Assembly (NCBI GenBank): GCA_000991245.1
Contig: LBRD01000007.1
Span: forward strand, 37,539 to 101,538
Direction of reading: 5' to 3'
Length of the DNA stretch: 64,000 nucleotides
Origin: Parcubacteria group bacterium GW2011_GWC1_36_108
Lineage (GTDB): Bacteria > Patescibacteriota > Minisyncoccia > Moranbacterales > GWC2-37-73
Below the pieces are notes generated by a model that was given only the letters and a program-made list of their open reading frames with translations, did not search any database and was not told the origin of the DNA. This document shows positions 45,183 through 61,237 of the stretch, one piece after another (positions within the stretch are counted from its first letter, which is position 1; every line of letters starts with the position of its first letter). A program made the translations under genes and the position numbers.

Positions 45183-46139
45183 ATGCAAATTCTCGTTACT
45201 GGTGGTGCTGGCTTTATTGGAAGTAATGTTACAAAAAAATTATTGGAGCGCGGAGACTCTGTTGTTTGCGTGGATGAGTTTAATGATTATTATTCTCCAA
45301 AAATAAAGGAACTTAATGTTGCTCAATTTGCTGATAATCCAAATTTTACATTGTATCGTGGAAGCATTACGGATTATGAATTTTTGAAAACTGTTTTTGA
45401 AAAAGAAAACATTCAAAGAGTTGTGCACGCAGCAGCTCGAGCGGGTGTGCGACCGAGCATTGAAAATCCTTTCATATATGAAGACACGAACGTGAAAGGC
45501 ACGCTTAATCTTTTGCATTTAGCTAAGGAATTTAAGATTGAAAATTTTGTATTGTTTAGTTCATCTTCGGTGTATGGAAATTCCTCAAAAGTGCCATTTT
45601 CCGAAAATGAGGTGGTAGATTGTCCCATTTCACCCTATGCGGCCACCAAGAAGGCCACAGAGCTTCTAGGATACACATACCACCATTTATACCACCTCAA
45701 TGTAAATGTTGTACGTCCCTTCACAGTCTACGGGCCCGGTGGACGGCCTGATATGTTTCCATTTTTAGCCACCAAATTGATTGATGAAGGCTTGGAAGTG
45801 AAGCGTTTTGGAGACGGCTCAACTCGCAGAGATTACACTTTTATTGATGATTTGGTTGATGGGGTGGTGGCTGCACTCGACACGATTTTGGGATATGAAA
45901 TTTTCAACCTTGGAAATTCAAACACTGTCGAGCTTAATTATTTTATCTCCACGGTGGAAAAAATTCTTGGCAAAAACGCCAACATCAAAGAATATCCAAT
46001 GCAACCAGGGGATGTCCTGATCACAAACGCCGACCTCACCAAATCTCGAAAACTTCTCGGCTACAATCCGAAGGTAAAGATTGAAGAGGGAATGAGTATT
46101 TTTATAAAGTGGTATCAAGAAAACAAAAATCTTTACTAA
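45183..46139 (+). CDS. NAD-dependent nucleotide-sugar epimerase/dehydratase (extended SDR)
   Basis: 'ILVTGGAGFIGSN', 'YAATKKATE' YxxxK. Confidence 0.85.
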   Translation: MQILVTGGAGFIGSNVTKKLLERGDSVVCVDEFNDYYSPKIKELNVAQFADNPNFTLYRGSITDYEFLKTVFEKENIQRVVHAAARAGVRPSIENPFIYEDTNVKGTLNLLHLAKEFKIENFVLFSSSSVYGNSSKVPFSENEVVDCPISPYAATKKATELLGYTYHHLYHLNVNVVRPFTVYGPGGRPDMFPFLATKLIDEGLEVKRFGDGSTRRDYTFIDDLVDGVVAALDTILGYEIFNLGNSNTVELNYFISTVEKILGKNANIKEYPMQPGDVLITNADLTKSRKLLGYNPKVKIEEGMSIFIKWYQENKNLY

Positions 46140-46176
46140 GATTTTTGTAACATGTAACATATAACATGTAACAAAA

Positions 46177-46539
46177 ATGCAAAACAAAAAATTTCACGAT
46201 GAATTAAAGAGAAAAATGGATGATTACGCTTTTGGTGTTTATGCTATAACTAAAAAATTTCCTAAGGACGAGATTTATGGCATAACATCACAACTGCGTA
46301 GATCTGCATTATCTGTTATACTGAACTATATAGAAGGATTTGCTAGAACTGGAGATAAGCAATTGAAAAATTTCCTAAATATTTCTTATGGCTCTCTTAA
46401 GGAGTCAAAATATTTACTTTATTTCTCAAAAAGAGAAGGATATATTGAAAATTTGGAATATGAAAAATTAATTAATTTATCTGAAGAAATTGGGGCAATG
46501 CTATGGACAACAATAAATGGTCTCAAGGAAAAATGTTGA
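46177..46539 (+). CDS. four-helix-bundle protein (23S rRNA intervening-sequence protein family)
   Basis: 'DELKRKMDDYAFGVYAITKKFPKDEIYGITSQLRRSALSV...EGFAR' family pattern; start codon embedded in repeat motif. Confidence 0.65.
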   Translation: MQNKKFHDELKRKMDDYAFGVYAITKKFPKDEIYGITSQLRRSALSVILNYIEGFARTGDKQLKNFLNISYGSLKESKYLLYFSKREGYIENLEYEKLINLSEEIGAMLWTTINGLKEKC

Positions 46540-46576
46540 GCCAGAAAGTTGTTATATGTTATATGCTATATGTTAT

Positions 46577-47353
46577 ATGTTGAAACATGAAAACTATAAG
46601 GAACTCATCTGGGCGCTTGCAAAAACTGATTTTAAACTTCGTTATCACGGAAGTGTTTTGGGATATTTGTGGGCGCTGCTCAAGCCGCTGCTGACTTTCG
46701 CGGTGATGAATTTTGTTTTTTCTTCAATGTTTAACCCTCGGGGAACAGGGATGAGTACATATTCATTGCAGTTGTTGGTTGCGCTTATGATGTTTTATTT
46801 TTTCTCTGAAGGAACGACAGCAGGAATGAGTTCACTTTTATCAAAAGCTCAACTTGTAACCAAAATTTATGTCCCACGCTGGACGATTATTATTGCTTCT
46901 ACAATCAACGCAACTCTAATATTCCTGATGAATCTTGTCGTGATTGTTTTTTTCTTTGCGCTTAAAGGTTTCATGCCGAGCATTCCAGCAATCCTTTTGT
47001 TTTTAATGTTTTCAATTTTCATATATATCATCGTTCTTTCTTTTTCACTCATTACTGCACCGCTCTATGTCAAATTTCGCGACCTGGCGATGATCTGGGA
47101 AGTTCTTTTAATGATAATTTTGTACGCGTCGCCGATTATTTATCCTTTAGTAACTTTGCCGGCAGCATATCATAAATTTATTCTGCTTAATCCTCTGGCT
47201 TTTATTATTCACTTTACCAAGGAATCGCTCATCAACAATCATTTTGCTAGCCCTTCACAATATGTAGTGTTTGTCGCCATAGTTTTTGGCGCCTTCGCCC
47301 TAAGCATCTTTTCATATCGTAAATTTATTCCAAAAGTTGCCGAAGAAATCTAG
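46577..47353 (+). CDS. ABC-2 type polysaccharide/teichoic-acid export permease (Wzm/TagG-like)
   Basis: 'ELIWALAKTDFKLRYHGSVLGYLWALLKPL' N-terminal signature, 6 TMs. Confidence 0.8.
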   Translation: MLKHENYKELIWALAKTDFKLRYHGSVLGYLWALLKPLLTFAVMNFVFSSMFNPRGTGMSTYSLQLLVALMMFYFFSEGTTAGMSSLLSKAQLVTKIYVPRWTIIIASTINATLIFLMNLVVIVFFFALKGFMPSIPAILLFLMFSIFIYIIVLSFSLITAPLYVKFRDLAMIWEVLLMIILYASPIIYPLVTLPAAYHKFILLNPLAFIIHFTKESLINNHFASPSQYVVFVAIVFGAFALSIFSYRKFIPKVAEEI

Positions 47354-47393
47354 AAACCATATAACATATAGCATAAAACATATAACACTTGTA

Positions 47394-47431
47394 AAAACAA
47401 AACCTTGTCGCGCTGACAAGGTTTTTGTTTT
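47394..47431. terminator. bidirectional intrinsic terminator (aaccttgtc-loop-gacaaggtt with A/T flanks)
   Basis: read directly after wzm stop. Confidence 0.75.
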
Positions 47432-47436
47432 GTGAT

Positions 47437-47448
47437 ATAATATCAATG
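47437..47448 (+). promoter_or_regulatory. extended -10 promoter element TGTGATATAAT (identical element at 30086-30096 upstream of ftsE)
   Basis: TGn-TATAAT match. Confidence 0.4.
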
Positions 47449-47529
47449 TTGGTAGTTTATAAATATTAATCACCCAGAGTTAAATAATATTTTGATTACA
47501 AAATAATTTAACAGGGTAAATAAAAAAAT

Positions 47530-47805
47530 ATGTTTTCATTAAGTCCAGATATTGAAATAGGAGCCATGCTTTTTTTGATAGGCATCGCTTTTATTTGCTC
47601 ACTCGTGTACGCTTTTTTTGCCAAAGAAAAAATTAAAGCATTAGTGGTTTTTTCAGTGCTTAGTAATATGATTTTATGGTTGTTTATTTTGATAGGATCA
47701 AGACTTTTTTATTTTTATGATATCCTATGGTTCAGAGTTTTTTCTGTTTTCTTTTGGCCGGTTATTAACATCTATTTAATCATTAAAGTGTTTTCAAAAA
47801 AATGA
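47530..47805 (+). CDS. small hypothetical membrane protein (91 aa), translationally coupled (ATGA) to lipase gene
   Basis: 3 TMs; preceded by TTTAACAGGGTAAAT motif. Confidence 0.5.
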   Translation: MFSLSPDIEIGAMLFLIGIAFICSLVYAFFAKEKIKALVVFSVLSNMILWLFILIGSRLFYFYDILWFRVFSVFFWPVINIYLIIKVFSKK

Positions 47806-50768
47806 AAATCAAATTTAAATTGGCGATTGTATCGCTGATTTTTTTTATCACTATCTCCCCAATTTCTTTTCCGGCTCTGCTTGATCATTCTCAAGCAGCT
47901 GATTATGAAGAAATCAGTGAGGATCAAGAGTGGACAATCGACAAAACTGTTGATAAGAACGTGGTTATTAAATCAGGCGTAACTTTGACGATTAAAAAAG
48001 GAGTTACCGTAACCTTTAAGAGCACATATATCGACGTTTATGGCAAAATGATTATTGCCGGCACATTGAAAAGCCCTGTGATATTTAAAAAAGCAGAAGA
48101 TTCGGAAAATTATGCAGTTTCAGTCTGGCAAGGAGGTAATTTGATTATGCGAAATGCTGATTTTAGCGGTGGCGGAGGTTTTTATTTTAATGTTTTGCAG
48201 AATGATTCAATTGTGAATAAAGCATATGCGTATGGAACATATTCTGCCGCAGTTCATGCACGTGGTGGAATTGTGAATATACAGGGAAGTAATTTTCACA
48301 ATAATGATGTTGCAGTGTATGTTGATAGCTCTAGTGCTGGAAAAGTTGTTGTCAGTAGGTCAAAATTTTTGAATAATTCACGGATTGACATTGCCTATGC
48401 CGGATATGGTCAACTAAGCAAGGTAGATGCCAGATATAATTGGTGGGGAAATATAGCGGGTCCATCCAATGTGTGTGTTGATCATAGTGATCCTTTTGGC
48501 GATTGTAAGATTGCAGGATCAGTCGATGTTTCAAATTGGCTCACGAGTGAAAATTTTCACGACCCAGTTGTTATCATTCCGGGAATTTTTGGTTCGCAAA
48601 AAGAAGACGAAATTTGGAAAATAGATCCGATTTTTCATACTTATGATAATTTGATTGATGAATTTAAAAATAATGGATATACGATTGGAAAAGATCTATT
48701 CCTTTTTCCGTATGAATGGCGTGACAGTAATAGTGTGAATGCCACAAAATTGAAATATAGAATAGCTGAAATAAAAACCATTGCCAAATGGCCAAAGGTT
48801 GATGTGGTGGCTCATTCGATGGGCGGTCTTTTGGCGCGCAAATATATTGAATCCAACATATATCAAAATGATGTTGATCAATTGATAACACTTGGAACTC
48901 CTAATTATGGTTCGCCAGAAATTTATCCTCTTTGGGAAGCAGGTGGAGCTATTGGCATGTCTCAGGTTATTATGAAAAAATTTCTTGCACAAGAAATGGA
49001 AGAGGCTGGATACGAGACTATGTTTGAATATATCCGAAAGCGTCCAATTTCTTCAGCTCAAGAGCTTTTGCCAAATTATGAATATTTGTATGACACTGAT
49101 GCAAACAAGCCTTTGATTTATCCAGCTGATTATCCCGTTAATGTTTTTTTGGACAATCTGAACAGTGAAGATAATGTTGAAAAATTAACCAATGTTGAAT
49201 ACATAAAGATTATAGGCAAGGTGGATAGTGATAAAAGTACAATTGTTGGATTTGATATTATTAAAACAGATATGGGAGAATTGTGGCAACACGGTTATCC
49301 TGTTGGTTTTGAAATTCCTTTAATTGGAGATAGAGGTGCTATAAGTGGGGATGGGGATGGAACTGTCCCACTTTCATCAGCCAAGAGTGTTGAAATTCCA
49401 TCAGACAATTATCTTGAATTGAATTTTTCTCATTCTGATTTGCCAACAAAAGCACAAAAAGATGTGTTGGAGACTCTGACAAACGTTCGTCCAACGTCAG
49501 AGGTTACTGACTGGTTAATAAAAAACATATTGCAAACCTGGGCGCACTCTCCAGTAGATATCCAAATCATTTCTCCAACCAACAAAAAATATGGAAAGGA
49601 TTTTGAAAACAACAAAAATTTTGAAAGCATTGACGGTTCATTCTATACTGGCTTTAAAACTGAAAATGAGTTTATCACAATTCCAAATCCTGAAGACGGA
49701 GAATACAAAGTTTTAACACAAGGAACTGAAAATGGAGGAGCGTATCGTATTGAAATGGTTAATCTTTCTCAGAATGAATCCAATGAAGCTTTAGAGTCCA
49801 CAGTTGAAATCGCTGGTTCTTCAATTCCCGATGAAACTGAAGAACTGAGAGTTGAAATTAATGATGGGGAGATAATAGAAAAAAATCAAGATGAAATTGC
49901 GCCAGTGACTGAGTCTTCTATTACTGGGACACAAGGAAGTAATGATTGGTGCACAGGTGACGTTGAATTAACATTGTCTGCAACTGACAACGTTAATGGA
50001 AGTGGCGTCGCAAAAACCGAATATTCTCTGGATGACGGAAAGACTTGGACAACATATGAAAGCCCAGTCGTTTTCTCGCAAGAAGGAATTTTTGATGTTT
50101 CATATCGTTCTGTTGATAAAAAAGACAACATCGAAGAAATAAAAAAAGTCACGATTAAAATTGACAAAACTTCCCCCGAAGCAAAAATGACTTTCAATTC
50201 AATAACTCAAAAACTTGAGGTGCTTGGCACAGATAATCTTTTGCAAAATGTTTCCGTGGAAACGAGAGAACAAACTATTTTCGTCGATAATAATCAAGAC
50301 GAGAAAAAGCAAAAATCCTGGGCTTGGGGATGGTTTCAAAAAGAAAAACCGAAAGAAAAGAAAATAATCGTAACTGCAACATTGACTGATCAAGCAGGGC
50401 ACAAAACTGAACTTGTTTGGGAAAAGAAAAAGAACAAAGACCGACGCATTGACCTTGCAATATCTTCAATTTCATATGATGGTCAAAAGACAAACATTGA
50501 TAAGGGAATTTTGCAATATAAGTGGTTACAAGATTGGAAAAGGAATAAATATCTTATTTTTGCTTCACATCTTAGCACTGAGTCAATGTCATTAGAATCT
50601 CATTATTTTCCAAACAAAAATCAAACGTGGCTTATGGAAAAACCGAATGAAATTGCTGATGATGACAAAAATGACAATGCTGAAAAACGTCCAGTTTGGA
50701 AAAAAATGACGGGAATGATAATCCCGAGTATACTAATAGAAAAGGGTGCTATTAAAATAAGTTATTAA
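47802..50768 (+). CDS. large secreted multidomain protein: N-terminal parallel beta-helix, central alpha/beta-hydrolase lipase/esterase, C-terminal Ig-like domains
   Basis: signal peptide; 'VDVVAHSMGGLLARKYIE' lipase GxSxG; 'TEYSLDDGKTWTTYESPV' Ig-like/chitobiase-C-type motif. Confidence 0.7.
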   Translation: MKIKFKLAIVSLIFFITISPISFPALLDHSQAADYEEISEDQEWTIDKTVDKNVVIKSGVTLTIKKGVTVTFKSTYIDVYGKMIIAGTLKSPVIFKKAEDSENYAVSVWQGGNLIMRNADFSGGGGFYFNVLQNDSIVNKAYAYGTYSAAVHARGGIVNIQGSNFHNNDVAVYVDSSSAGKVVVSRSKFLNNSRIDIAYAGYGQLSKVDARYNWWGNIAGPSNVCVDHSDPFGDCKIAGSVDVSNWLTSENFHDPVVIIPGIFGSQKEDEIWKIDPIFHTYDNLIDEFKNNGYTIGKDLFLFPYEWRDSNSVNATKLKYRIAEIKTIAKWPKVDVVAHSMGGLLARKYIESNIYQNDVDQLITLGTPNYGSPEIYPLWEAGGAIGMSQVIMKKFLAQEMEEAGYETMFEYIRKRPISSAQELLPNYEYLYDTDANKPLIYPADYPVNVFLDNLNSEDNVEKLTNVEYIKIIGKVDSDKSTIVGFDIIKTDMGELWQHGYPVGFEIPLIGDRGAISGDGDGTVPLSSAKSVEIPSDNYLELNFSHSDLPTKAQKDVLETLTNVRPTSEVTDWLIKNILQTWAHSPVDIQIISPTNKKYGKDFENNKNFESIDGSFYTGFKTENEFITIPNPEDGEYKVLTQGTENGGAYRIEMVNLSQNESNEALESTVEIAGSSIPDETEELRVEINDGEIIEKNQDEIAPVTESSITGTQGSNDWCTGDVELTLSATDNVNGSGVAKTEYSLDDGKTWTTYESPVVFSQEGIFDVSYRSVDKKDNIEEIKKVTIKIDKTSPEAKMTFNSITQKLEVLGTDNLLQNVSVETREQTIFVDNNQDEKKQKSWAWGWFQKEKPKEKKIIVTATLTDQAGHKTELVWEKKKNKDRRIDLAISSISYDGQKTNIDKGILQYKWLQDWKRNKYLIFASHLSTESMSLESHYFPNKNQTWLMEKPNEIADDDKNDNAEKRPVWKKMTGMIIPSILIEKGAIKISY

Positions 50769-50793
50769 TTTTAATAAATATTAATAAAAATAT

Positions 50794-51189
50794 ATGACAA
50801 AAAAAAGAGCATTATTTCTTAGTGTTTGCGGGGCAATAATTTTTAGTGTTGCGATAACTATTTCAGTGAAAGGTTTTTGTTTGATAGATTTAATTTGCAG
50901 TAGATCACATGATGATTCGGTGGCATTTATTTTTTTTCCAACAATTACTCTTTTTATTTTCTCTCTCATTACATATCCAATGCAGGATAAAATTTTCCAA
51001 TCTTGGTGGCGTTTTGCTCGCATCTGGATTCCGCTTTCAATGTTAGCAATTTTGATATCACCTTCATATTCGCATAATTTTATTTTTCCAATTGAAAAGG
51101 GAGCCGTAGCATTTTTCTCTTCAGCACTTTTCGTCATAATTAGCCTTGTTCAAATAATTTTGACTTCCCGAAAATTAAAGAGAAGCTAA
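50794..51189 (+). CDS. hypothetical 4-TM membrane protein (131 aa)
   Basis: hydrophobic segments only. Confidence 0.45.
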   Translation: MTKKRALFLSVCGAIIFSVAITISVKGFCLIDLICSRSHDDSVAFIFFPTITLFIFSLITYPMQDKIFQSWWRFARIWIPLSMLAILISPSYSHNFIFPIEKGAVAFFSSALFVIISLVQIILTSRKLKRS

Positions 51190-51301
51190 TAAAAGTAAGG
51201 CGTAATCTTTCGCGTAGTGTTGCGCTGTTTCCATTATTTTTTTTAAAAGTAGTTTTAGCTGTGAGGTAATATAGATATAGCAGCAATGGAATTATATTAA
51301 C

Positions 51302-51342
51302 TTGGCGCCAATAGAATGCGGTCGTCAGCTACTGGCGCCGGG
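51302..51342. repeat. GC-rich palindromic repeat TTGGCGCCA-N-AATGCGGTCGTCAG-N-TGGCGCCGGG, copy 1
   Basis: three near-identical copies (51302, 52036, 52144) in an AT-rich background. Confidence 0.7.
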
Positions 51343-51390
51343 TAGTGTTTAATATAATATAAAAGAGATAATTTAATTGATAAAAATATT

Positions 51391-51957
51391 GTGAACAAGG
51401 GTAAGAAAAAATTTAAAAGTCCAATAAAGAAAAAGGCACTGTTGCTTCTTGCAGGTGGTGTTGCTCTTGGTCTTGCACGAAATCCTAGGTCGCAGCAATA
51501 TATATTTAAAACACTAAAAAGGGATTGGAAGGAAATAAATAAAAAATATTTATATAAAATTGTCAAAGAATTTAGAGAGGAAAGGTTGGTTGATTATATT
51601 GAGAAAGCGGACGGTAGCGTGAAGATTGTGCTTACTGAAAAAGGAAAAAATATTATTCTTAATTTTGATATAGATAGAATAAAAATAAAAAAACCAATTC
51701 GTTGGGATAAAAAATGGCGATTTGTATTTTTTGATATACCTGAAAAACGAAGATCCGAAAGAAATGTTTTGAGAAATAAATTAAAAGATTTGAAATTTTA
51801 TGAAATTCAAAAATCAATTTTCGTGCATCCTTATCCGTGTTTAGATGAAGTTAATTTTGTTATTGAATATTTTAATTTGAGAAATATGGTTCGTTATGGG
51901 GAAGTGACAAATATTTCAAATGAGGAGGAATTAAAATTGAAATGTAATCTTTTTTAA
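51391..51957 (+). CDS. PaaX-like transcriptional regulator (short wHTH + PaaX core domain), GTG start
   Basis: 'WDKKWRFVFFDIPEKRRSERNVLRNKLKDLKFYEIQKSIFVHPYP' parallels PaaX 'WDGKWLLLLSEGLDK..LIWQGFGAL..S.MASP'; N-terminal wHTH-like 'LVDYIEKADGSVKIVLTEKGK'. Confidence 0.5.
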   Translation: MNKGKKKFKSPIKKKALLLLAGGVALGLARNPRSQQYIFKTLKRDWKEINKKYLYKIVKEFREERLVDYIEKADGSVKIVLTEKGKNIILNFDIDRIKIKKPIRWDKKWRFVFFDIPEKRRSERNVLRNKLKDLKFYEIQKSIFVHPYPCLDEVNFVIEYFNLRNMVRYGEVTNISNEEELKLKCNLF

Positions 51958-52035
51958 AAAGGCACTTTTCTTTTTAGCTCGTTTATGTTTTGCTTGCTCG
52001 TGTTTCTTGTTTGCTGCGGCACTATTTTATTTTAA

Positions 52036-52076
52036 TTGGCGCCACTTTTGTGCGGTCGTCAGTTAGTGGCGCCAGG
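52036..52076. repeat. GC-rich palindromic repeat, copy 2
   Basis: ttggcgccacttttgtgcggtcgtcagttagtggcgccagg. Confidence 0.7.
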
Positions 52077-52143
52077 CTTATTATGGTGAAATAGTATTTT
52101 AAATTGCAAAAAAATACATATCTTTTATAATGTATTTATTTTA

Positions 52144-52184
52144 TTGGCGCCAGTAGAATGCGGTCGTCAGTTAGTGGCGCCGGG
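52144..52184. repeat. GC-rich palindromic repeat, copy 3
   Basis: ttggcgccagtagaatgcggtcgtcagttagtggcgccggg. Confidence 0.7.
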
Positions 52185-52273
52185 CTTCTTGATGGTGGAG
52201 CTTATAAAAAGCTTGAATTATTGGAAAAATAAATAATAAAAGCTAAATCCAGAAATTTCGGAATTTGTTAAGG

Positions 52274-52357
52274 CAGTAACCTGTGCAAAAATTGCACATG
52301 TTACTGTGTATGGAAAAGTTAGAAAAATCAACCTGTTCCATTTTGGAACAGGTTGAT
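52274..52357. promoter_or_regulatory. two long hairpins (cagtaacctgtgcaa-aaa-ttgcacatgttactg; atcaacctgttcca-ttt-tggaacaggttgat) in a non-coding segment
   Basis: 13-15-bp stems read directly. Confidence 0.45.
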
Positions 52358-52535
52358 GTAGATAAGAAAACAAGAAAGAATAATTTAGTAAAGTGTTACC
52401 TATGTGCTCATCTAGTTAAAATACTTGACAAGATCTTAAAAATACTGTACAAAAAGGGATGGTAGTATGGTAATTTTAACAATTCAAGAATCTGCAAATT
52501 TGCAGAAAAAATAACCCAGAAAAAGGAGAAAAAAG

Positions 52536-53009
52536 ATGCCAGTTCCAATGAAAAAGTCGTCAGATGAAGTTTTTCGGTCAAACGGTGAGGATTTGGAGTA
52601 CAGAAGTGCTCAAGGTTCGCCTCATGTCACAGGGGAGATTGAAAAACCAGTTCCCAGTTGTAAACAGAGTATTTTTTTGAAGATAAAGGGTGAAGCTGGC
52701 GGAAGACAGGCCTTGGGCGCGCGAATCTCGGAAATTTTGCTGAAAATTTTCGGCAAAACAAACCAAAAATGTAAAATTGAGGATCTATCCATCTTGGATG
52801 GACAATATCTCTCGGAGTTTTTTGAAGTATTGACTAAGATCTTTAAGGAAGGACGCGTGGAAGATGTGGAGCCACTCAACCTTTTCTTGTCAGGGTTTAG
52901 TGAACCAGACCTTTCCAGATTGCAGAACCTGTCAACTCATGACAAAATCGGCAATAACATTCTGAGTGAGGGTATAGGCAACTCACTAAAAACCAAAAGA
53001 AGGAGATAG
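52536..53009 (+). CDS. hypothetical protein (157 aa), visibly GC-richer than surroundings
   Basis: strong RBS AAAAGGAGAAAAAAGATG; terminator 53043-53075 downstream. Confidence 0.5.
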   Translation: MPVPMKKSSDEVFRSNGEDLEYRSAQGSPHVTGEIEKPVPSCKQSIFLKIKGEAGGRQALGARISEILLKIFGKTNQKCKIEDLSILDGQYLSEFFEVLTKIFKEGRVEDVEPLNLFLSGFSEPDLSRLQNLSTHDKIGNNILSEGIGNSLKTKRRR

Positions 53010-53042
53010 CCTGGGGGATGAGAATTAATATGAAGGGGGAAC

Positions 53043-53075
53043 GAATTTTCGTTCTCCCTTTTTTCTTGTCCTTTA
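53043..53075 (+). terminator. intrinsic terminator gggggaacgaa-loop-ttcgttctccc + T6
   Basis: read directly. Confidence 0.7.
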
Positions 53076-53127
53076 TGTTGTATCTTTAGCTTGCAAAGTA
53101 GCTCTTTTTGTTATATGATGGGATTGT

Positions 53128-53415
53128 ATGGTTACAGAAATATACATAAATAGGATCAAGGAAATTTTACAAAAACATCTCACTAATAATGAGAAAGTTT
53201 TTATTTTTGGCTCAAGTGTGGACGGTGAAAAGTTTGGTGATGTGGATTTGGCAGTAGTTTCTGAGCAATCAGTGGATGAAAGAATAATGCGCCAAATTAG
53301 AGAGGATTTGGAGGAATCAACACTGCCGTATAAATTTGATTTGGTGGATATTAATCAAACTAATGATCCATTTCGCACCCGCGTGCTGAATGGTCCAAAA
53401 TTATGGATTATCTAG
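53128..53415 (+). CDS. minimal nucleotidyltransferase (MNT) antitoxin of a HepT/MNT pair
   Basis: 'FGSSVDGEKFGDVDLAV' GSx9DxD motif. Confidence 0.75.
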   Translation: MVTEIYINRIKEILQKHLTNNEKVFIFGSSVDGEKFGDVDLAVVSEQSVDERIMRQIREDLEESTLPYKFDLVDINQTNDPFRTRVLNGPKLWII

Positions 53416-53798
53416 AAGAAAAACATACACAACTTGAGCAAGCATTAAAAAAATGGAAGCAAGTGCTGGATATGCCTTTTTCGGATATAAATAGAGACGC
53501 ATCAATTCAGAGATATGAATTTTCTTTTGAATTGCTTTGGAAAGTAGTTAAAAAATATCTCAAAGAGATTGAAGGTTTTGAATGTAATTCACCTAAATCA
53601 TGTTTTCGAGAAATTCGTATGACATTGGATTTAAATGAATCTGACATTGAAATATGCATAAGTATGACGGAGGATAGAAATTTGTCAGTGCACACATATT
53701 CAGAGGAGATGGCGAACAATTTATATGCAAAACTGCCAGAATATGCCAGAGTTTCAAAATTAATTGCAAAAAAAATAAAAGAAAAAGCAAAAATATAA
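53403..53798 (+). CDS. HepT-like (DUF86/HEPN) toxin
   Basis: 'RNLSVHTY' Rx4HxY HEPN motif; 13-nt overlap with MNT gene. Confidence 0.75.
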   Translation: MDYLEEKHTQLEQALKKWKQVLDMPFSDINRDASIQRYEFSFELLWKVVKKYLKEIEGFECNSPKSCFREIRMTLDLNESDIEICISMTEDRNLSVHTYSEEMANNLYAKLPEYARVSKLIAKKIKEKAKI

Positions 53799-53870
53799 AA
53801 AATTTACAATGACTAAGGAAGTTCAAAATTTATTTATTATTTAGTTAACGTGTTGACGGGTTAACGAGTT

Positions 53871-53939
53871 ATGAAAATACAAAAATTTGATTCTATTGTG
53901 AAATTTTCTGAATTGGAACGCTTTATTGATCAAAAATAA
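53871..53939 (+). pseudogene. duplicated internal fragment of the wzt/tagH ABC ATPase gene (matches 56214-56274)
   Basis: ~53/56 nt identical to 'KKFDSIVKFSELERFIDQK' coding segment of 55833 gene. Confidence 0.6.
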
Positions 53940-53993
53940 AAAAACTTTTAACTTTTAATTATGGCGAATTTGCCATAATTACCAGCTTAAATT

Positions 53994-54023
53994 AAAAAAA
54001 CCAGTTTGATACTGGTTTTTTTG
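53994..54023. terminator. bidirectional terminator aaaaaaaccagt-ttgat-actggttttttt
   Basis: read directly. Confidence 0.6.
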
Positions 54024-54037
54024 CTACCCCCTGTTCG

Positions 54038-54232
54038 TTATTTACAAGAGTTGGTTTGAAGTTCGCCAAATTTACGCTCATATTCCTTCAAGAGATCTTT
54101 TTGGTCTTGTGCTGAAAGATCTGCAGCCTTCCGTATGATTTTTTGCTGCTCTGCCACAGGAAGATCAAAGAAATTAATTTTTTCTTTGTTCGTATCTTTT
54201 TTGCTGATGTGTGATATGATTTTTTTTAACAT
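54038..54232 (-). CDS. small hypothetical protein (64 aa)
   Basis: ORF only. Confidence 0.3.
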   Translation of the reverse strand: MLKKIISHISKKDTNKEKINFFDLPVAEQQKIIRKAADLSAQDQKDLLKEYERKFGELQTNSCK

Positions 54233-54520
54233 AATATTGTATTTAATGATTCTTTATTATATATAATTTTGATGTAATTGTCAATATTGCAATCAATATT
54301 TTTGCTTCCTCTGCTATTTGTATTTCATCTGTTTGTATCATGCTTTGATTTTACCATTTTTTCATTTTCAGTACAATGCATGCCCAATGCGTTAAGCGTT
54401 GTATTTTTGCATTTAAAATGATAAAATTGATTAGTAAAATATACTCAATTAATATTGATTTAAATAATCACATAAAAATAAAAATAGATATCAAAAACTA
54501 AGATAAAAAGAAAAAAATAT

Positions 54521-55081
54521 ATGCACATATTTGTTGATGAATCTGGAATACATAAAGAAACTGGAAAATCTTCAGTTGCGTTGGTTTATGTTTTAACAGA
54601 AGATGTAAAATTTCTTAATGAAGCCATAATTAGGGCTGAAAAATCATTAAGAATAAAAAATTTTCATTGGACTGATTGTTCGTGGAAAATAAGGATTGAA
54701 TTTTTCAAGCTTATATTGAAGGAAAATTTTTCTGTAAGAGTTTCAATTATACGAAATCCTTTCAGTAAAAACGATTTTGAAGAGTCAATCAAGCTGCTGT
54801 TGTTGGAAAAGAAATTTAAAAAAGTTGTAATAGATGGCAAGAAGCCAAAATGGTATGCATTAAAAATGAAAAAGCTGTTGCGAGATTCTGGAATTTCTGT
54901 AAAAAAAATAAATATGGCCAATGACGAAGCGCATCCATGTTTGAGGTTGGCTGATGCTTATGCTGGTTTGTCTAGGGCATACTGGGAAGGGAGGGAAAAT
55001 AAGAATGTGGATAGTTTGTATGAAATAGCTCGGAAGAAAATAAAAACCACCCAACTGGTGGATGGTCAGACAGTCCAGTAG
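54521..55081 (+). CDS. DUF3800-family protein
   Basis: 'MHIFVDESGIHKE' N-terminal DESG motif characteristic of DUF3800. Confidence 0.55.
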   Translation: MHIFVDESGIHKETGKSSVALVYVLTEDVKFLNEAIIRAEKSLRIKNFHWTDCSWKIRIEFFKLILKENFSVRVSIIRNPFSKNDFEESIKLLLLEKKFKKVVIDGKKPKWYALKMKKLLRDSGISVKKINMANDEAHPCLRLADAYAGLSRAYWEGRENKNVDSLYEIARKKIKTTQLVDGQTVQ

Positions 55082-55218
55082 CTATTGCTAGCTTTCTCGC
55101 ACGGAGATTTGTCCTGGGTATCTAGTTATATTCAAAGCATAGCATAAAGACTAAAATACGTCAATAGCGCTATGCATCATTATATACGGATTATATTAGA
55201 AAAATATTTCAAAAAACA

Positions 55219-55243
55219 AAAACCCCCGTTTATAGGGGGAATA
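55219..55243 (-). terminator. hairpin ccccc-gtttata-ggggg with U-run only on minus-strand reading
   Basis: orientation implies minus-strand transcription from the 55.25-55.8 kb non-coding segment. Confidence 0.35.
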
Positions 55244-55832
55244 GCCTATCCCTTTCGAGAAACCCGCCATACGGTCGGTGTTCGGCTAACATTTGACTTT
55301 ATTATAGACAATTTTTACAATGCTGTCAATGGTTAATACTCCTTCCGCTATTATTAATTTCAAAAATGAAATGTTACGGATAGAGTGGCTATTTTAAGCC
55401 ATTTTTTATTATATAATTGTGTTGCAAATTTACCCATATAATGATAAACTTTATTAGTGAAAAAAAGTGAAGAAGATGTACTTTTTTGTTTATTTGAATG
55501 ATGCAAGGGCAATTTTCCACATTTCTTTTTCCCGCAAAAAGAAACCTGGAGGAAAGAAAAGCTCACACCTGATGAAGATACTGTGGCAAAAACTTCGCTC
55601 TTCGCTAGAATTTACACTTCGCTCGTAGTCTGCTGACTCTCGCTACGTTTCAAAATTCCTTAACGCTCATCACTCGTTTTTTGCCTACGTACTTCATATG
55701 GTGCAAAGGGAATGCGGAATGCGAATACTGAAGAATACAGAGAGGGGTAGAGAGAATGGAAGAATTAGTTTAAAATTAAATAATTGAAAAATTAAGATTT
55801 GAATCGAAATTCAAAATTCAAAATTCGAAATT

Positions 55833-57131
55833 ATGAACAACGACATCGCGATCAGCGTTAAGAATGTGTCAAAGACCTTCAAGATACCACATGAAAAAAT
55901 CTCCTCTCTTCGTGGGGCGGCGGTTTCGATTTTTTCGAAAAAGAGGGGTTATGAAGAATTTAAGGCGTTGGATGATGTTAGTTTTGAGGTGAAGAAGGGG
56001 GAGTTTTTTGGGATTATTGGGAGAAATGGGAGTGGAAAAAGCACACTTTTGAAAATTCTGGCGGGAATATATCAGACTGACAAGGGAAGTGTGGAAATCG
56101 ACGGGCGGATTTCGCCGTTTTTGGAATTGGGGATTGGGTTTAATCCAGAACTTAGTGGTCGGGATAATGTGTATCTTAATGCAACTGTATTGGGACTGAC
56201 GAAAAAAGAAATCGATAAAAAATTTGATTCAATTGTGAAATTTTCTGAATTGGAAAGATTTATTGATCAAAAACTCAAAAATTATTCCTCCGGCATGCAA
56301 GTGCGACTAGCCTTTTCCGTTTCAATCCATGCCAACCGCGAGATTCTGCTCATGGATGAAGTGCTGGCGGTTGGAGATTCGAATTTCCAGAGTAAATGTT
56401 TGGAAGAATTTAATAAATATCGGGACGCGGGAAGAACTGTTATTATTGTTACTCATGATATTTCAGTAGTTCAGAGATATTGTGATCGAGCGATGCTTCT
56501 TAGAAATGGCAAAATAATGAAAATGGGAAAAGCAGAAGATGTGGCAAACGCATATGTTTATGATAATATGTCAGATGAAGAAAAAAGGTTTACTGATGAA
56601 GAAAGGCAAAAAATAATTGATGCCGAAAAAAATCTTGAAAATTTAAAAGGGAAAGAATTGGAGGATGAAAAAAGAAGAATTAAAGAGGAAAAAATAAAAC
56701 AAGCAGAAGAAAGAAAAAATAAAGTTGTGGAGATTATGAAGGTTGAACTTCTGGACAAAGACGGAATAGATAAGAATGTTTTTGAGACAGGGGAATCGCT
56801 CGATATTAAAATTAATTTTGAGGTGTACAAAGAAATTGAAAATTTAAATTTTGGGATAGGTCTGCATGCAATTTCAGGCGGACAAGTTTTTGGATATAAT
56901 ACTCAAATGGATGAGATAATTGTTGACAAAAATAAAAAAAGTATAACACTGCATTTTGATAAACTGCCAATTTTAAAGGGTGAATACACCATGAATATTG
57001 CATGCTGGAATGATATTGTTCAAGATCCATATGATCTCAAAATGGGTTATAGAATAGTGAGAATGTTTTCTAAAGGTTTAAAGAATAATTACGGTGGTTT
57101 TTGTGATATTGAGCATGCTTGGAAGAATTAA
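55833..57131 (+). CDS. ABC transporter ATP-binding protein Wzt/TagH-like with C-terminal extension (coiled coil + beta-rich domain)
   Basis: 'GRNGSGKSTLLKILAG', 'YSSGMQVRLAFSV' signature. Confidence 0.85.
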   Translation: MNNDIAISVKNVSKTFKIPHEKISSLRGAAVSIFSKKRGYEEFKALDDVSFEVKKGEFFGIIGRNGSGKSTLLKILAGIYQTDKGSVEIDGRISPFLELGIGFNPELSGRDNVYLNATVLGLTKKEIDKKFDSIVKFSELERFIDQKLKNYSSGMQVRLAFSVSIHANREILLMDEVLAVGDSNFQSKCLEEFNKYRDAGRTVIIVTHDISVVQRYCDRAMLLRNGKIMKMGKAEDVANAYVYDNMSDEEKRFTDEERQKIIDAEKNLENLKGKELEDEKRRIKEEKIKQAEERKNKVVEIMKVELLDKDGIDKNVFETGESLDIKINFEVYKEIENLNFGIGLHAISGGQVFGYNTQMDEIIVDKNKKSITLHFDKLPILKGEYTMNIACWNDIVQDPYDLKMGYRIVRMFSKGLKNNYGGFCDIEHAWKN

Positions 57132-57157
57132 CCGTGTTTTAAAAATAAAATTAAAAT

Positions 57158-58093
57158 ATGAGCGAAAAAAAATTTATTTCAGTGGTTACCCCTGTCTATA
57201 AATGTGAAAAGTGTATAGATGCTCTTTGTGCGCGATTGAAAAGTGTTATTGAAAAAATCACAGATAATTTCGAAATAATACTTGTAAATGATGCAAGTCC
57301 AGACAATGCTTGGGATGTTATAATGAAAAATTCAAAAAATGATCCCAGAATTAAGGGTATTAATCTTTCTCGCAATTTTGGACAGCATTATGCAATTACT
57401 GCGGGCATTGATTCTGCAGAAGGTGATTGGGTTGTAGTTATGGATTGTGACTTGCAAGACAAGCCTGAGGAAATTAGTAAGCTTTACAACAAAGCAATTG
57501 AGGGTGAATTCGATATAGTTTTTGGTAGAAGAATTATGCGCAAAGATGGTTTTTTAAAAAGAATGGCATCCAGATTTTTTTATAAGGTTTTTGAATATCT
57601 GTCTGGAATAAAATTTGATTATACTGTTGCAAATTTTAGCATTAGTAAGCGATTAGTTATCGAAAGCTTTAAAGATCTTAGAGAACAAAATAGATCATTC
57701 CCATATTTTATTAATTGGTTAGGATTTAATAGGGGTTATGTGGATATTGATCATGGAAAAAGAGATAATGGTGAATCAGCATATACTATAAAAAAGTTAT
57801 TAAAATTTGCTCTGGATAATATAATTGCTTATTCAAATAAGCCACTTATCCTTTCTATTTGGGTTGGATTGTTCTTTTCTTTTCTTTCAATTGCTTACGT
57901 TTTATATTTAATATTAAGATACATAAGTTACGGAGTTGTTATTGAAGGGTGGACAAGCGTTATTGTTTCAATATGGTTTATTGGTGGATTAATTTTTGCA
58001 AATCTTGGTGTAATTGGTTTGTATATTGGAAAAATTTTTAATGAAACTAAAAATCGCCCCTTGTACATAATAAAAGAAAAAATTGGTTTTTAA
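57158..58093 (+). CDS. GT2 polyprenyl-phosphate glycosyltransferase (GtrB/ArnC/DPM1-like) with two C-terminal TMs
   Basis: 'ILVNDASPDN', 'VVMDCDLQD' DxD, C-terminal TM pair. Confidence 0.85.
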   Translation: MSEKKFISVVTPVYKCEKCIDALCARLKSVIEKITDNFEIILVNDASPDNAWDVIMKNSKNDPRIKGINLSRNFGQHYAITAGIDSAEGDWVVVMDCDLQDKPEEISKLYNKAIEGEFDIVFGRRIMRKDGFLKRMASRFFYKVFEYLSGIKFDYTVANFSISKRLVIESFKDLREQNRSFPYFINWLGFNRGYVDIDHGKRDNGESAYTIKKLLKFALDNIIAYSNKPLILSIWVGLFFSFLSIAYVLYLILRYISYGVVIEGWTSVIVSIWFIGGLIFANLGVIGLYIGKIFNETKNRPLYIIKEKIGF

Positions 58094-58111
58094 TTTTATT
58101 TTTGAAATCGT

Positions 58112-58816: not shown

Positions 58817-58831
58817 TATTATTAAATAAAA

Positions 58832-59200
58832 ATGGCGTATCTATATATTTTAGGCACTATAATCTTTACAGTGTATGGTCAATTGATATTGAAATGGCGC
58901 ATACCTTTTTATGGATCACTCCCGGCTTCCTTTTTTGATAAAATATTGTTTTTATTTAAATTATTATTGGATCCTTTTATCTTTTCTGGTTTTGCTGCAG
59001 CATTTATTGCATCATTTTTTTGGATGGCAGCAGTGACAAATAAGATAGAACTCAGCAGGGCATATCCCATGACTACGATTGGTTTGGTGTTGGTATTTGT
59101 TTTTTCGATTATTTTTTTTAAAGAAGCACTGACGGTGTATAAGGTTATTGGAATGTTTTTAATAATTTCAGGCGTTTTATTTATCAGTAAATCATTATGA
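58832..59200 (+). CDS. small 4-TM membrane protein (GtrA/ArnE-like candidate lipid-linked sugar flippase)
   Basis: 122 aa, four TMs, position next to GtrB-like gene. Confidence 0.5.
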   Translation: MAYLYILGTIIFTVYGQLILKWRIPFYGSLPASFFDKILFLFKLLLDPFIFSGFAAAFIASFFWMAAVTNKIELSRAYPMTTIGLVLVFVFSIIFFKEALTVYKVIGMFLIISGVLFISKSL

Positions 59201-60072: not shown

Positions 60073-60084
60073 TTTTTTGTTTTT

Positions 60085-61233: not shown

Positions 61234-61237
61234 CAAA

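Follow-up and report, generated by a model that had tools for sequence, protein, structure and literature searches.

Serotype switching occurs where O-antigen or capsule clusters recombine between conserved flanking genes and their borders carry debris from pseudogenes and IS elements; defense islands are hotspots of defense or accessory genes between conserved core genes. In uncultured CPR bacteria, the mechanisms of gene exchange are poorly known. A third type of variable locus grows by sequential displacement, which has been described in the orphan arrays of Vibrio cholerae T6SS effector-immunity loci and for which homology-facilitated illegitimate recombination (HFIR) was proposed (PMC5361080). 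HFIR has likewise been proposed for the C-terminal displacement of Rhs/CDI loci in papers cited in that study. Here, we analyze a 64-kb stretch of Moranbacteria DNA (the window) in which several kilobases of other genes separate wzm and wzt, the two genes of a glycan ABC exporter. We consider it likely that this interval combines a conserved lipase block with a recombination hotspot at the wzt 5′ boundary, where serial displacement probably proceeded by HFIR.

The Exporter Genes and Their Separation

The features that frame the interval are as follows.
46177–46539, plus strand: IVP gene (23S rRNA intervening-sequence protein, four-helix-bundle, bAvd-like; PF05635, E 4e-28)
46577–47353, plus strand: wzm, ABC-2 permease of the glycan exporter and conserved left anchor (PF01061, ABC2_membrane, E 9.8e-13)
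47358–47387: third copy of the IVP-type repeat, 30 nt, 97% complementary to 46550–46579
47399–47425: strong bidirectional terminator after wzm, 12-pair stem, both strands
55833–57131, plus strand: wzt, ABC ATPase with a Wzt_C glycan-binding domain and right anchor (PF00005, ABC_tran, and PF14524)

A sequence-only reading had placed the two exporter genes at these positions, about 8.5 kb apart, and a search of the full window bears this out: wzm and wzt are each single-copy and intact, and 8,479 nt separate them. Their products have the domains expected of a Wzm/Wzt exporter, that is, an ABC-2 permease and an ATPase with a C-terminal carbohydrate-binding domain, both full length relative to homologs; the 258-aa Wzm has 3,494 homologs with 100% coverage, the closest of which (80–97% identity) are in Moranbacteria. 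The genes are neither adjacent nor, given at least three terminators within the gap, arranged for cotranscription. Upstream of wzm, the IVP gene is bracketed by inverted repeats (46148–46174 and 46549–46581), and homology between the window and its closest relative stops at 47355, just past the end of wzm.

On the right, wzt is the first gene of a strain-variable glycan cluster, and the gene sets downstream of it vary among relatives and among strains. Between relatives, the region of wzt encoding the nucleotide-binding domain is 77–82% identical in nucleotide sequence and the C-terminal part about 71%; the first ~600 nt are 70–82% identical across species and up to 100% inside one species.

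An Old Neighbor of wzm

Three genes occupy the left part of the interval.
47530–47805, plus strand: TM91, 91-aa membrane protein of the conserved block
47802–50768, plus strand: lipase, 988-aa secreted LCAT/Lipase_2/PGAP1-like hydrolase (Pfam)
50794–51189, plus strand: TM131, 131-aa membrane protein; the plus strand carries the real gene

In tblastn searches, more than 30 species have these genes next to wzm, placed either upstream of it or between it and wzt. Among 82 species-level Moranbacteria loci, at least 14 species have the block between the two exporter genes, and 9 further species have the wzm–lipase layout on contigs that ended short of wzt. The sequence-only reading took wzm and wzt to be normally adjacent, which describes 18 of the 42 species with wzt downstream of wzm; a gap without lipase is found in 10 and the lipase lies between in 14, including every close relative with a findable wzt; separation is the norm for the window's clade. 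The lipase-between layout is universal in the immediate clade and spans Wzm identities of 60–97% and several Wzm clades. For example, the order is wzm-lipase-TM131-...-Fic-IVP-wzt in the closest relative (Wzm 97% identical at the amino acid level; gap 6.7 kb) and wzm-TM91-lipase-PaaX-...-zeta-IVP-wzt in a 91% relative (6.9 kb), and the gap reaches 9.3 kb in an 85% relative.

No gene in the window has more typical codon usage than the lipase, which is itself mosaic: the stretch encoding residues 689–988 together with TM131 is 82% identical in nucleotide sequence to the closest relative, L004, which is the best DNA match of this segment, and residues 1–372 are only 23% identical. We conclude that the left 3.8 kb is an old, vertically conserved neighbor of wzm in Moranbacteria that has long lain between wzm and wzt here. 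The layout arose either because the lipase moved between wzm and wzt or because wzm moved.

A Mosaic of Small Modules before wzt

The right 4.6 kb is, in our reading, a recombination hotspot at the wzt 5′ boundary, where conserved genes meet the strain-variable glycan cluster starting with wzt. Apart from the scar described below, it contains the following features.
51304–51339, 52038–52073, and 52146–52181: three GC-rich hairpin repeats flanking the PaaX-like gene (stem GGCGCCA/TGGCGCC, invariant loop core ATGCGGTCGTC)
51391–51957, plus strand: PaaX_M gene (Cas2-like domain; PF20803, E 1.7e-20)
52536–53009, plus strand: Orf157, 157 aa (GC 0.42, GC3 0.44)
53032–53061, plus strand: Orf157 terminator
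53128–53415, plus strand: MNT nucleotidyltransferase (PF18765/PF01909, motif GSSVDGEKFGDVD)
53403–53798, plus strand: HEPN-type partner of MNT (PF08780, NTase_sub_bind, HI0074 type, E 4.1e-21)
53996–54020: bidirectional terminator hairpin AAAAAAACCAGTTTGATACTGGTTTTTTT between the scar and the module that follows
54038–54232, minus strand: Orf64, 64-aa ORF with a perfect consensus promoter (54284–54256)
54341–54291 and 54300–54229, minus strand: zeta-toxin pseudogene, residues 1–17 and 213–236 (tblastn)
54521–55081, plus strand: DUF3800 gene (PF12686, 25.5 bits, cut-off 21)
55129–55064, minus strand: DUF3800-II RNA (Rfam RF02961, 68.4 bits against a gathering score of 43.2, full model length)
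55329–55301, minus strand: promoter of the DUF3800-II RNA (consensus, 12 of 12)
55067–55045, minus strand: terminator of the DUF3800-II RNA
55331–55832, plus strand: non-coding stretch before wzt, ending in an AAATTC-type repeat (55804–55832), a population-level breakpoint

The hairpin that flanks the PaaX-like gene has no further copy elsewhere in the window and no match in Rfam. The gene-plus-hairpin module recurs with different stems in L007, L043, L045, and L054, and the stems covary (85.7% of cells paired vs. 37–46% in slid controls; 9 of 12 pairs compensatory). The PaaX_M-type gene travels with a covarying hairpin whose invariant 11-nt loop makes it a candidate new structured RNA or DNA motif. 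Next to this module lies Orf157, for which neither Pfam nor PADLOC gives a match and which has distant homologs (31–32% amino acid identity) directly downstream of wzm in L047 and L054. It has the highest codon-usage distance in the window and is the only compositionally atypical gene; otherwise composition is uniform, and the interval has a GC content of 0.334 compared with 0.355 for the whole window.

The MNT and HEPN-type genes overlap by 13 nt and encode a GS...DxD nucleotidyltransferase and a partner with the Rx4H motif RNLSVH, within the Rx4-6H pattern of HEPN proteins. The pair had been called HepT/MNT; an MNT with an overlapping HEPN-type partner is indeed present, but the partner matches PF08780, which we take to be part of the HEPN superfamily, and not HepT proper (DUF86, PF01934) in Pfam. 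Over exactly 53107–53797 the module is 85% identical in nucleotide sequence to L045, although the Wzm of L045 is only 71% identical at the amino acid level, and in L045 the module is flanked by two wzt stubs. The pair is a predicted toxin-antitoxin-like module that appears to be exchanged between lineages.

Beyond the AAAAAAACCAGTTTGATACTGGTTTTTTT hairpin, whose Rfam match covers the terminator part only of an unrelated model, the window holds no intact zeta-toxin (PF06414) TA module. Instead, zeta-toxin remnants in different frames lie beside the intact Orf64, which is 66% identical to a 65-aa ORF of L007; there the ORF overlaps an intact zeta toxin at the toxin's 3′ end, and the pair is complete. 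The DNA blocks 54038–54261 and 54292–54439 correspond to L007 16170–16396 and 17022–17180. When 140 cargo proteins of relatives were searched by tblastn against the non-coding stretches of the interval, zeta toxin was the only remnant recovered; no recombinase or transposase remnants appeared, and 55331–55832 gave no protein remnants.

The DUF3800-II RNA is convergent with the DUF3800 gene and overlaps its 3′ end in antisense, an arrangement also found in L015. This motif was described with function unknown (Weinberg et al. 2017, PMC5737381), and the window copy, with a DUF3800 gene beside it and a terminator after it as published, is a regular member that shows no difference. Terminators after wzm, Orf157, and the scar and consensus promoters before Orf64 and the DUF3800-II RNA suggest that the cargo consists of independent transcription units.

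The closest DNA relative changes from module to module: L007 for PaaX (75%), L045 for MNT-HEPN, L004 for the IVP leader (91%), L033 and L007 for Orf64 and the zeta remnant (72–74%), L015 for DUF3800 and its RNA (65–72%), and L035 for 55213–55309 (83%). Therefore, the distal 4.6 kb is a mosaic and not one unit. In other genomes the same slot holds Fic, zeta, PemK, NYN, MNT/HEPN, AlbA_2 ATPases, AAA_14/DUF4143, and DUF3800, and IVP genes are the commonest hotspot cargo among relatives (12 of 140 ORFs). Pfam and composition thus uphold the earlier list of a secreted lipase, a PaaX-like regulator with GC-rich repeats, a GC-richer ORF, and a DUF3800 protein, and also its remark that no integrase or transposase is visible: no ORF of 47354–55832 carries an integrase, recombinase, or transposase Pfam domain. 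PADLOC recognizes no complete known defense system in the interval.

The wzt Scar

Three overlapping features make up the scar.
53800–53890, plus strand: left half, start of an IVP gene (leader plus codons 1–6)
53881–53936, plus strand: right half, wzt nt 386–441, joined at the shared 10-mer AAAAATTTGA (53881–53890)
53871–53939, plus strand: 22-codon ORF MKIQKFDSIVKFSELERFIDQK with its stop codon

The sequence-only reading saw a near-copy of an internal wzt segment at 53871–53939 and took it for a recombination scar; both points hold. The match joins 53881–53936 to wzt 56218–56273 with 3 mismatches in 56 nt, and none of 100 shuffles gave a comparable match. None of the three differences changes the encoded amino acid (TCT/TCA Ser; CGC/AGA Arg), which is what one would expect of a sequence that diverged when it still belonged to a functional wzt allele. 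To the left, 53779–53890 is 90.6% identical to L004 16979–17095, which comprises the upstream region and start of an IVP gene that directly precedes wzt; to the right, 53879–53943 is 91% identical to the interior of L004 wzt. Hence, L004 keeps the parental IVP-wzt arrangement, and the 10-nt microhomology is clear at the IVP::wzt deletion joint. The wzt copy is, as read from these alignments, a genuine recombination scar in which the start of an IVP gene runs directly into an interior segment of a former wzt.

Stub Arrays and a Strain Variant

Such debris recurs in relatives. By our count, 10 species besides the window have wzt 5′ stubs interleaved with cargo before an intact wzt; extra wzt pieces upstream of intact wzt or in wzm–wzt gaps occur in L010 (two), L014, L019, L025, L035, L043, L045 (three or more), L058, and L091. 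Most stubs start at codon 1–2, and their 3′ ends are spread over nt 33 to 615. They are 75–100% identical to the resident wzt, which points to events of different ages. The cargo between them includes PemK, NYN, PaaX, MNT-HEPN, and IS200-like TnpA, the last in three hotspots, and in L010, L035, and L058 a conserved promoter-plus-hairpin unit stands ahead of the cargo genes that follow stubs. In four species the stubs contain a REP-like GC-rich palindrome at one fixed site immediately before the Walker A codons, and this palindrome is absent from more than 40 intact wzt genes. Simple illegitimate joining would not predict a fixed site of this kind.

The same boundary varies within the window's own population, where wzt has been overwritten from codon 12 in a co-occurring strain. 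Its contigs L093, L100, and L104 match the window at 99.4–100% identity as far as 55825, where they part from it: of wzt they keep only codons 1–11, which encode the window-type peptide MNNDIAISVKN but carry 7 synonymous differences, and after these come an AlbA_2/HATPase_c_4 gene, another wzt allele (78% nucleotide identity), and a different glycan gene set. L004 and L093 have an identical junction (wzt codon 11, then AACCATAAAATCC...) in stub alleles that are only ~67% identical, which hints either that certain sites are preferred or that the junction was transferred and gene conversion came later.

Serial Displacement as the Likely Origin

We are very confident of the descriptive part of our account, that is, that the lipase block is conserved, that the distal part is mosaic, and that the stubs, the scar, and the strain variant are built as described. 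HFIR as the mechanism we regard as an even call, as both it and the order of events would have to be read back from end products. According to this scheme, incoming DNA would bring a wzt, usually with small genes that lay upstream of it in the donor, and homology would anchor it within the conserved stretch of wzt that encodes the ATPase or farther downstream. Its other end would be joined illegitimately upstream, often within the 5′ region of the resident wzt, so that each displacement would leave an old 5′ stub and new cargo ahead of a complete wzt; later microhomology deletions would trim the debris. In the window, an earlier IVP-wzt arrangement may have been displaced by a segment with Orf64 and a zeta toxin, DUF3800 plus RNA, and today's wzt and glycan cluster, cutting the old wzt at nt 442. 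A deletion of ~0.8 kb between AAAAATTTGA in the IVP start and AAAAATTTGA in wzt would then have produced the 56-nt scar, and the middle of the zeta toxin would have been lost. We propose that self-contained, separately transcribed modules persist because insertions here spare wzm and wzt function.

Two features that HFIR calls for are present: a conserved anchor, the 5′ ~600 nt of wzt, beside a variable region consisting of the wzt C-terminal part and downstream genes, and anchor-gene remnants and foreign cargo stacked with variable junctions beside the functional copy, in the window as in the 10 other species. A relative's locus encodes ComEC (PF03772), which makes DNA uptake plausible. Some stubs extend to nt 558–615; in those cases an anchor would have to be located past the conserved ATPase-coding region or outside wzt. 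Two very recent duplications (L035, 100%; L010, 98%) could equally reflect local duplication or Campbell-type integration of a circle.

Other explanations fit less well. It is scarcely credible that a chimeric metagenome assembly produced the split or the scar: contig L003 does look chimeric, with 50%-GC DNA carrying a truncated murB joined to the AAATTC repeat (55804) 29 nt before wzt, but every junction of the window's arrangement is covered at 99.6–100% identity by independent assemblies from other samples and other assemblers (46047–55544, 47403–55825, and 53085–64000), and NCBI genome record GCA_000991495.1 covers 47403–55506. We give hardly more credence to a function for the 22-codon ORF, whether as a small gene or as a regulatory decoy (a peptide derived from wzt or a target for antisense). 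The ORF does begin with ATG and keep its frame, differs from wzt only synonymously, and is kept at 100% identity across several samples; yet those samples represent one and the same strain, the ORF occurs in no other species, relatives' stubs differ in length and position and are often frameshifted, codons 1–6 are no more than the beginning of an IVP gene behind its own leader, and the synonymous changes fit divergence prior to truncation equally well. Very improbable, too, is a single compact mobile or defense island of ~8.5 kb inserted between adjacent exporter genes, with the wzt fragment as insertion scar, as the sequence-only reading proposed. Adjacency in more distant Moranbacteria, the accessory-type distal genes, some of them TA or defense-like, and the existence of the fragment, whose similarity is significant, all speak for it. 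However, relatives carry the same kind of intervening genes, close relatives combine the lipase block with differing distal modules rather than having or lacking a single unit, and all same-species contigs contain the full interval; the sole significant direct repeat (53881–53936/56218–56273) lies inside the interval and does not flank it, so there is no attachment-site-like duplication of an island, and the left half of the scar is an IVP gene start. There is no integrase or transposase, and the closest tRNA genes lie at 26.8 and 31.9 kb. A single inserted island is largely refuted by the conserved position of the lipase block, the mosaicism of the modules, and the uniform composition outside one ORF. 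The outcome that the sequence-only reading itself named as refuting it is thus partly borne out.

Two further readings assign a special role to the start of wzt. Dedicated cassette capture, in which the wzt 5′ end serves as attachment site for a recombinase in trans (an IS200/IS605-type HUH or unknown enzyme) on an integron-like platform, seems unlikely. The stub-cargo-stub-cargo arrays of L045 and L010, the codon-11 junction shared by different stub alleles, the fixed palindrome, the promoter-plus-hairpin units, and the TnpA genes are all consistent with it. Against it, stub ends are scattered without a single site, neither the window's interval nor most relatives' intervals hold a recombinase, the palindrome is a dispersed genomic element that is not wzt-specific, the window scar lacks that palindrome and the window lacks the promoter-hairpin unit, and no attC-like common site flanks the modules. 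The arrays, the shared junction, and the fixed palindrome site would also fit a gene-capture platform, as opposed to a passive hotspot, at the Moranbacteria wzt 5′ end, where small self-contained units would enter at favored positions within the first ~200 nt and an intact wzt would be regenerated each time by integrase-less, integron-like accretion; we consider this quite unlikely. We favor serial displacement at the wzt boundary.

Comparison with Known Systems

Separate glycan exporter genes are routine in Moranbacteria, and selfish or defense-type genes have long been accreting in the zone ahead of wzt. This better-supported reading replaces the tempting one of a mobile defense island splitting an operon. 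The stub arrays and the before/after strain pair are sequence-level evidence that uncultured CPR bacteria recombine frequently and switch their surface glycans, and stubs of graded age are natural markers that could order acquisition events.

As in integron arrays, small promoter-poor or self-contained cassettes, many of them TA genes, are stacked beside a fixed gene; unlike them, the window locus has no IntI or other integrase, attI, or attC, its junction positions vary, and its module boundaries share no common imperfect-palindrome site. Like a defense hotspot, one chromosomal slot holds different small TA or defense-like genes in each genome, although much of the cargo consists of IVP genes, PaaX-like genes, and pseudogenes, and the window's interval has no complete PADLOC system. 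The T6SS and Rhs arrays share with the window a conserved segment that acts as homology anchor, incoming modules that displace the resident copy, remnants and orphan genes that pile up beside the functional copy, and modules shared horizontally with no integrase. The window is mirrored in comparison, with 5′ stubs and cargo upstream of the 5′ ATPase region where those arrays have 3′ tips and immunity genes downstream. Furthermore, its anchor is a glycan ABC-exporter ATPase, its cargo (TA, IVP, PaaX-like, and DUF3800) is unrelated to the anchor's function, and its host is an uncultured CPR bacterium in which the mechanism is read from sequence. In contrast to serotype switching, the border in the window lies between the two exporter genes, and 4–9 kb of unrelated cargo is tolerated inside the pair. 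Nevertheless, as in serotype switching, gene fragments mark the borders, wzm and the genes upstream of it are conserved, and the wzt C-terminal domain and the downstream glycan genes vary, even between strains that are 99.4% identical.

The wzm/wzt split and the lipase block

The window lies on a scaffold of Candidatus Moranbacteria (CPR) assembled from Rifle groundwater metagenomes, and in its 64 kb each gene of the glycan exporter is present as a single intact copy.

Exporter genes of the window
46577-47353, wzm, permease (ABC2_membrane)
55833-57131, wzt, ATPase (ABC_tran and Wzt_C)

The two genes are 8,479 nt apart. Because independent assemblies from other samples span every junction of this layout at 99.6-100% identity, it is not an artefact. 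The sequence-only reading was correct in describing wzm and wzt as split and in the intervening genes that it listed. Its proposal that a single island of about 8.5 kb had split the pair is not borne out, as relatives share the lipase block, composition is uniform apart from one ORF, and the distal modules have different closest relatives. No integrase or transposase was found in the interval (47354-55832) with Pfam or in a remnant search with relatives' cargo proteins, PADLOC returned no complete defence system there (weak Cas2-like and MNT matches only), and a literature search on Moranbacteria and wzt together gave nothing.

We compared loci around Wzm homologues at graded distances, together with 80 species-representative loci, and mapped the window proteins onto them. 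Layouts were counted in the 42 species with a wzt detected downstream of wzm: the genes are adjacent in 18, separated by 0.6-9.7 kb without a lipase in 10, and separated by 3.9-9.6 kb that include an LCAT-like lipase in 14. Nine more contigs carry the lipase downstream of wzm and end short of wzt, and in nine species the lipase, together with a 131-aa membrane protein, is instead located upstream of wzm. On the Wzm tree the lipase-between layout occurs in several clades and is universal in the immediate clade of the window.

Gene order in two relatives (TM91 and TM131, 91-aa and 131-aa membrane proteins; IVP, 23S rRNA intervening-sequence protein)
L004, closest relative (Wzm 97%): wzm-lipase-TM131-197aa-Fic-IVP-wzt
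L007, 91% relative: wzm-TM91-lipase-PaaX-...-zeta-IVP-wzt

This universality and these gene orders argue that both the split and the lipase block are ancestral for the lineage of the window. Uniform composition agrees with this view: GC is 0.334 in the interval vs 0.355 in the window, codon usage is more typical in the lipase than in any other gene, and no signal extends across the interval, the sole atypical gene being a 157-aa ORF (GC3 0.44).

The lipase is itself mosaic relative to L004 (window 47802-50768 vs L004 10890-14438), with a C-terminal 300 aa that are 68% identical and an N-terminal 370 aa that are 23% identical; DNA homology breaks near 49926. Such a pattern is suggestive of domain swapping, or of diversifying selection, in a surface enzyme. 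In three further loci (L043, L045 and L054), identity to the window is 83-92% for the epimerase and IVP genes that precede wzm vs only 69-71% for Wzm, which argues that wzm itself has been exchanged in some lineages.

Anatomy of the scar

The near-copy of wzt is real (53881-53936 vs 56218-56273; 3 mismatches in 56 nt, 0 expected by chance), and the earlier suggestion that it is a recombination scar is supported, and a detailed explanation of the scar is now available. In L004 an IVP gene lies directly upstream of wzt. Window 53800-53890 corresponds to the leader and first six codons (ATGAAAATACAAAAATTTGA) of an L004-type IVP gene, and from 53881 on the scar is wzt nt 386-441; both parents contain the 10-mer AAAAATTTGA. 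The joining of IVP leader and codons to the wzt interior at this 10-mer points to an older IVP-wzt arrangement that lost about 0.8 kb in a microhomology-mediated deletion, with the scar as its remnant. All three differences from wzt are synonymous, which fits a sequence that diverged while still in a working wzt allele. Beyond the cut at wzt nt 442 there is unrelated sequence, with a hairpin and then a bidirectional terminator; the older wzt would already have been cut at this point before the deletion.

Mosaic structure of the distal 4.6 kb

A blastn search of the interval against all collected loci gave a different closest relative for each module of the distal 4.6 kb, which is a mosaic.

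Closest relatives of the interval's modules (nucleotide identity unless stated)
Lipase C-terminus and TM131: L004, 82%
PaaX-like gene: L007, 75%
MNT/HEPN pair, exactly 53107-53797: L045, 85% (L045 Wzm only 71% aa)
Leader, 53779-53890: L004, 91%
64-aa ORF and flanks: L033 and L007, 72-74%
DUF3800 and RNA: L015, 65-72%
55213-55309: L035, 83%

In L007 the 64-aa ORF is paired with a zeta toxin; the window zeta is reduced to residues 1-17 and 213-236. Searches of non-coding 51958-52535 and 55130-55832 with 140 cargo proteins of relatives found no further pseudogene remnants. Terminators directly follow wzm, the 157-aa ORF and the scar, and promoters with a perfect consensus match lie before the 64-aa ORF and before a minus-strand DUF3800-II RNA unit with its own terminator. 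The distal modules are thus predicted to be separate transcription units.

DUF3800-II RNA unit
55045-55329, minus strand; promoter 55329-55301 (12/12 consensus), terminator 55067-55045

This RNA (Rfam RF02961, 68 bits) is antisense to the 3' end of the DUF3800 gene, and the gene-RNA pair is also found in L015. The class has no assigned function (PMC5737381).

Recurrent wzt stubs and their cargo

We searched each wzm-to-wzt gap with the wzt of the same genome. Extra pieces of wzt occur in L010 (two), L014, L019, L025, L035, L043, L058, L091 and L045 (three or more). Most of these stubs start at codon 1-2, together with a few bases of upstream sequence. The 3' ends fall at varied points between nt 33 and 615, and identity to the resident wzt ranges from 75% to 100%. 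Each stub is nearly always closest to the wzt of its own genome, and we reject a single travelling lineage of stubs. Cargo is lodged between them, in the order stub-PaaX-stub-MNT/HEPN-stub in L045 and IVP-stub-NYN-stub-PemK-wzt in L010, and L035 carries an IS200-like TnpA with terminal hairpins. Two apparent features were discarded: L035 does not hold a split DUF3800 gene, having one N-terminal fragment and one full-length copy, and a 200-nt insertion in one L010 stub is a scaffolding N-run flanked by duplicated sequence, the true insert being 45 nt.

Scanned in bulk with Pfam, 140 ORFs in the gaps of about 30 species yielded IVP (12), SpoIID (7), PaaX_M (6), DUF5648 (5), AAA_14 (5), DUF4143 (4), IS200 Y1_Tnp (3) and AlbA_2/HATPase_c_4 (3), along with NYN, MNT, zeta and PDDEXK proteins. 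Many species have an IVP gene immediately upstream of wzm or wzt. IVP genes outside rRNA are bracketed by inverted repeats, as rRNA intervening sequences are.

Inverted repeats at IVP genes
Window: 46148-46174, 46549-46581 and 47358-47387 (the third copy also brackets wzm)
L004: 17040-17075 and 17500-17530
L007: 17202-17265 and 17661-17694

The PaaX-associated hairpin

Next to the PaaX-like gene, the GC-rich repeats prove to be one hairpin in three copies; its 11-nt loop core (ATGCGGTCGTC) is invariant, and its stem varies by genome (GGCGCCA, GGTACCAAAA, GTGACCAC, TATACCAAAAC, ATTCCAC). Covariation in the stem is strong: across 25 instances, 85.7% of cells pair vs 37-46% with the partner columns slid, and 9 of the 12 pairs show compensatory changes. 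There are 3-6 copies around PaaX_M (Cas2-like) genes, always on the strand of the gene.

PaaX-associated hairpins
Window: 51304-51339, 52038-52073 and 52146-52181
L007: 13893-16005
L014: 14366-14759
L043: 17745-18864
L045: 11826-14242
L054: 8418-13517

A metagenome scan added about 21 low-GC contigs on which true hairpins occur, with more versions of the stem; five of these contigs have a PaaX homologue inside the stretch retrieved, and high-GC matches were rejected as chance. No Rfam family matches the hairpin. A dispersed MITE- or REP-like mobility element was considered and rejected, the sequence of the three window copies being in no other locus. We regard the hairpin as a candidate for a new structured motif of RNA or ssDNA, or for a binding site of the PaaX-like protein. 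The housekeeping RNAs of the window are ordinary (RNase P class A RNA, 1967-2295; tRNA-Thr(CGT), 26829-26902; tRNA-Gln(CTG), 31927-31999).

Replacement within the population

Two contigs from other Rifle samples (L093 and L100) match the window at 99.4-100% identity as far as 55825, which is 8 nt short of the wzt ATG. Beyond this point they keep only wzt codons 1-11, encoding the window-type peptide MNNDIAISVKN with 7 synonymous differences. The stub is followed by a 50-nt block, which recurs after a stub in L004 and at window 53800-53829 (30 nt, 96.7% identity), and then by a 460-aa AlbA_2/HATPase_c_4 gene. In the near-identical contigs L103 and L104 this gene leads directly into a different wzt allele (433 aa, 78% nt), and the glycan gene set differs from that of the window. 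The stub on one pair of contigs and the new wzt and glycan genes on the other argue that almost identical strains differ by a swap that starts inside the 5' end of wzt and leaves a stub.

Two inverted copies of an element of about 45-60 nt flank tRNA-Thr and a 173-aa ORF in the window (26663-26707, plus strand; 27825-27886, minus strand); the variant strain carries this element as an insertion at the position equivalent to window 55609 (L093 about 19018-19073; L103 5847-5908). A further contig, L003, has a wzt identical to that of the window and a different upstream region. We kept this apparent empty-site variant out of the evidence, as it is probably an assembly chimera, the alternative being a real foreign insertion: its first 630 nt are 50% GC, hold a truncated murB and the end of a PG-binding protein, and are joined at a low-complexity AAATTC repeat (window 55804).

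Mechanism and comparison with known systems

We infer a mechanism of sequential displacement at wzt. The conserved anchor would be the ATPase-coding part of wzt or the sequence downstream, where incoming DNA would be held by homology, and its other end would be joined illegitimately a short distance upstream. The portion of the resident wzt 5' of the joint would become a stub, and the upstream genes of the donor would become new cargo. DNA uptake is plausible because a ComEC gene is present in the locus of a relative. For the youngest stub events, Campbell-type integration of a circle or a local duplication would give identical products.

Sequential displacement leaves three features unexplained, and given these we keep, as a minority reading, a mechanism that captures DNA at preferred sites in wzt. 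The joint after codon 11 is identical in L004 and L093, yet their stub alleles are only about 67% identical. In stubs of four species a GC-rich palindrome (GCCTGCC...GGCAGGC) lies at one fixed site, between GARTTTTTT and GGNATTATTGG, always just before the Walker A codons; it is absent from all of the more than 40 intact wzt genes and occurs, within wzt, in retired stubs only. A conserved unit, consisting of a sigma-70-like promoter and then a hairpin (AAAACCACCCG...CGGNGGGGTTTATTTT), lies after wzt stubs and immediately upstream of NYN, PemK and IS200 TnpA cargo in L010, L035 and L058; it is absent from the window. The palindrome is otherwise dispersed and REP-like (GCCTGCC(TGCC)GGYAGGCAGGC, a perfect GC-rich palindrome).

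REP-like palindromes
Window: 12692-12709
L010: 18297 and 19441
L019: 15720
L045: 13257 and 14448
Further loci: L012, L013, L027, L030, L043, L055 and L086

Promoter-plus-hairpin units
L010: 18596-18650 and 19561-19615
L035: 18457-18510
L058: 9575
L070: 11760

We conclude that the locus is a hotspot of displacement or accretion bordering a variable surface-glycan cluster in a CPR lineage. The end products seen at wzt fit, in mirror image, the sequential-displacement model put forward for T6SS effector-immunity arrays and for Rhs loci (PMC5361080).
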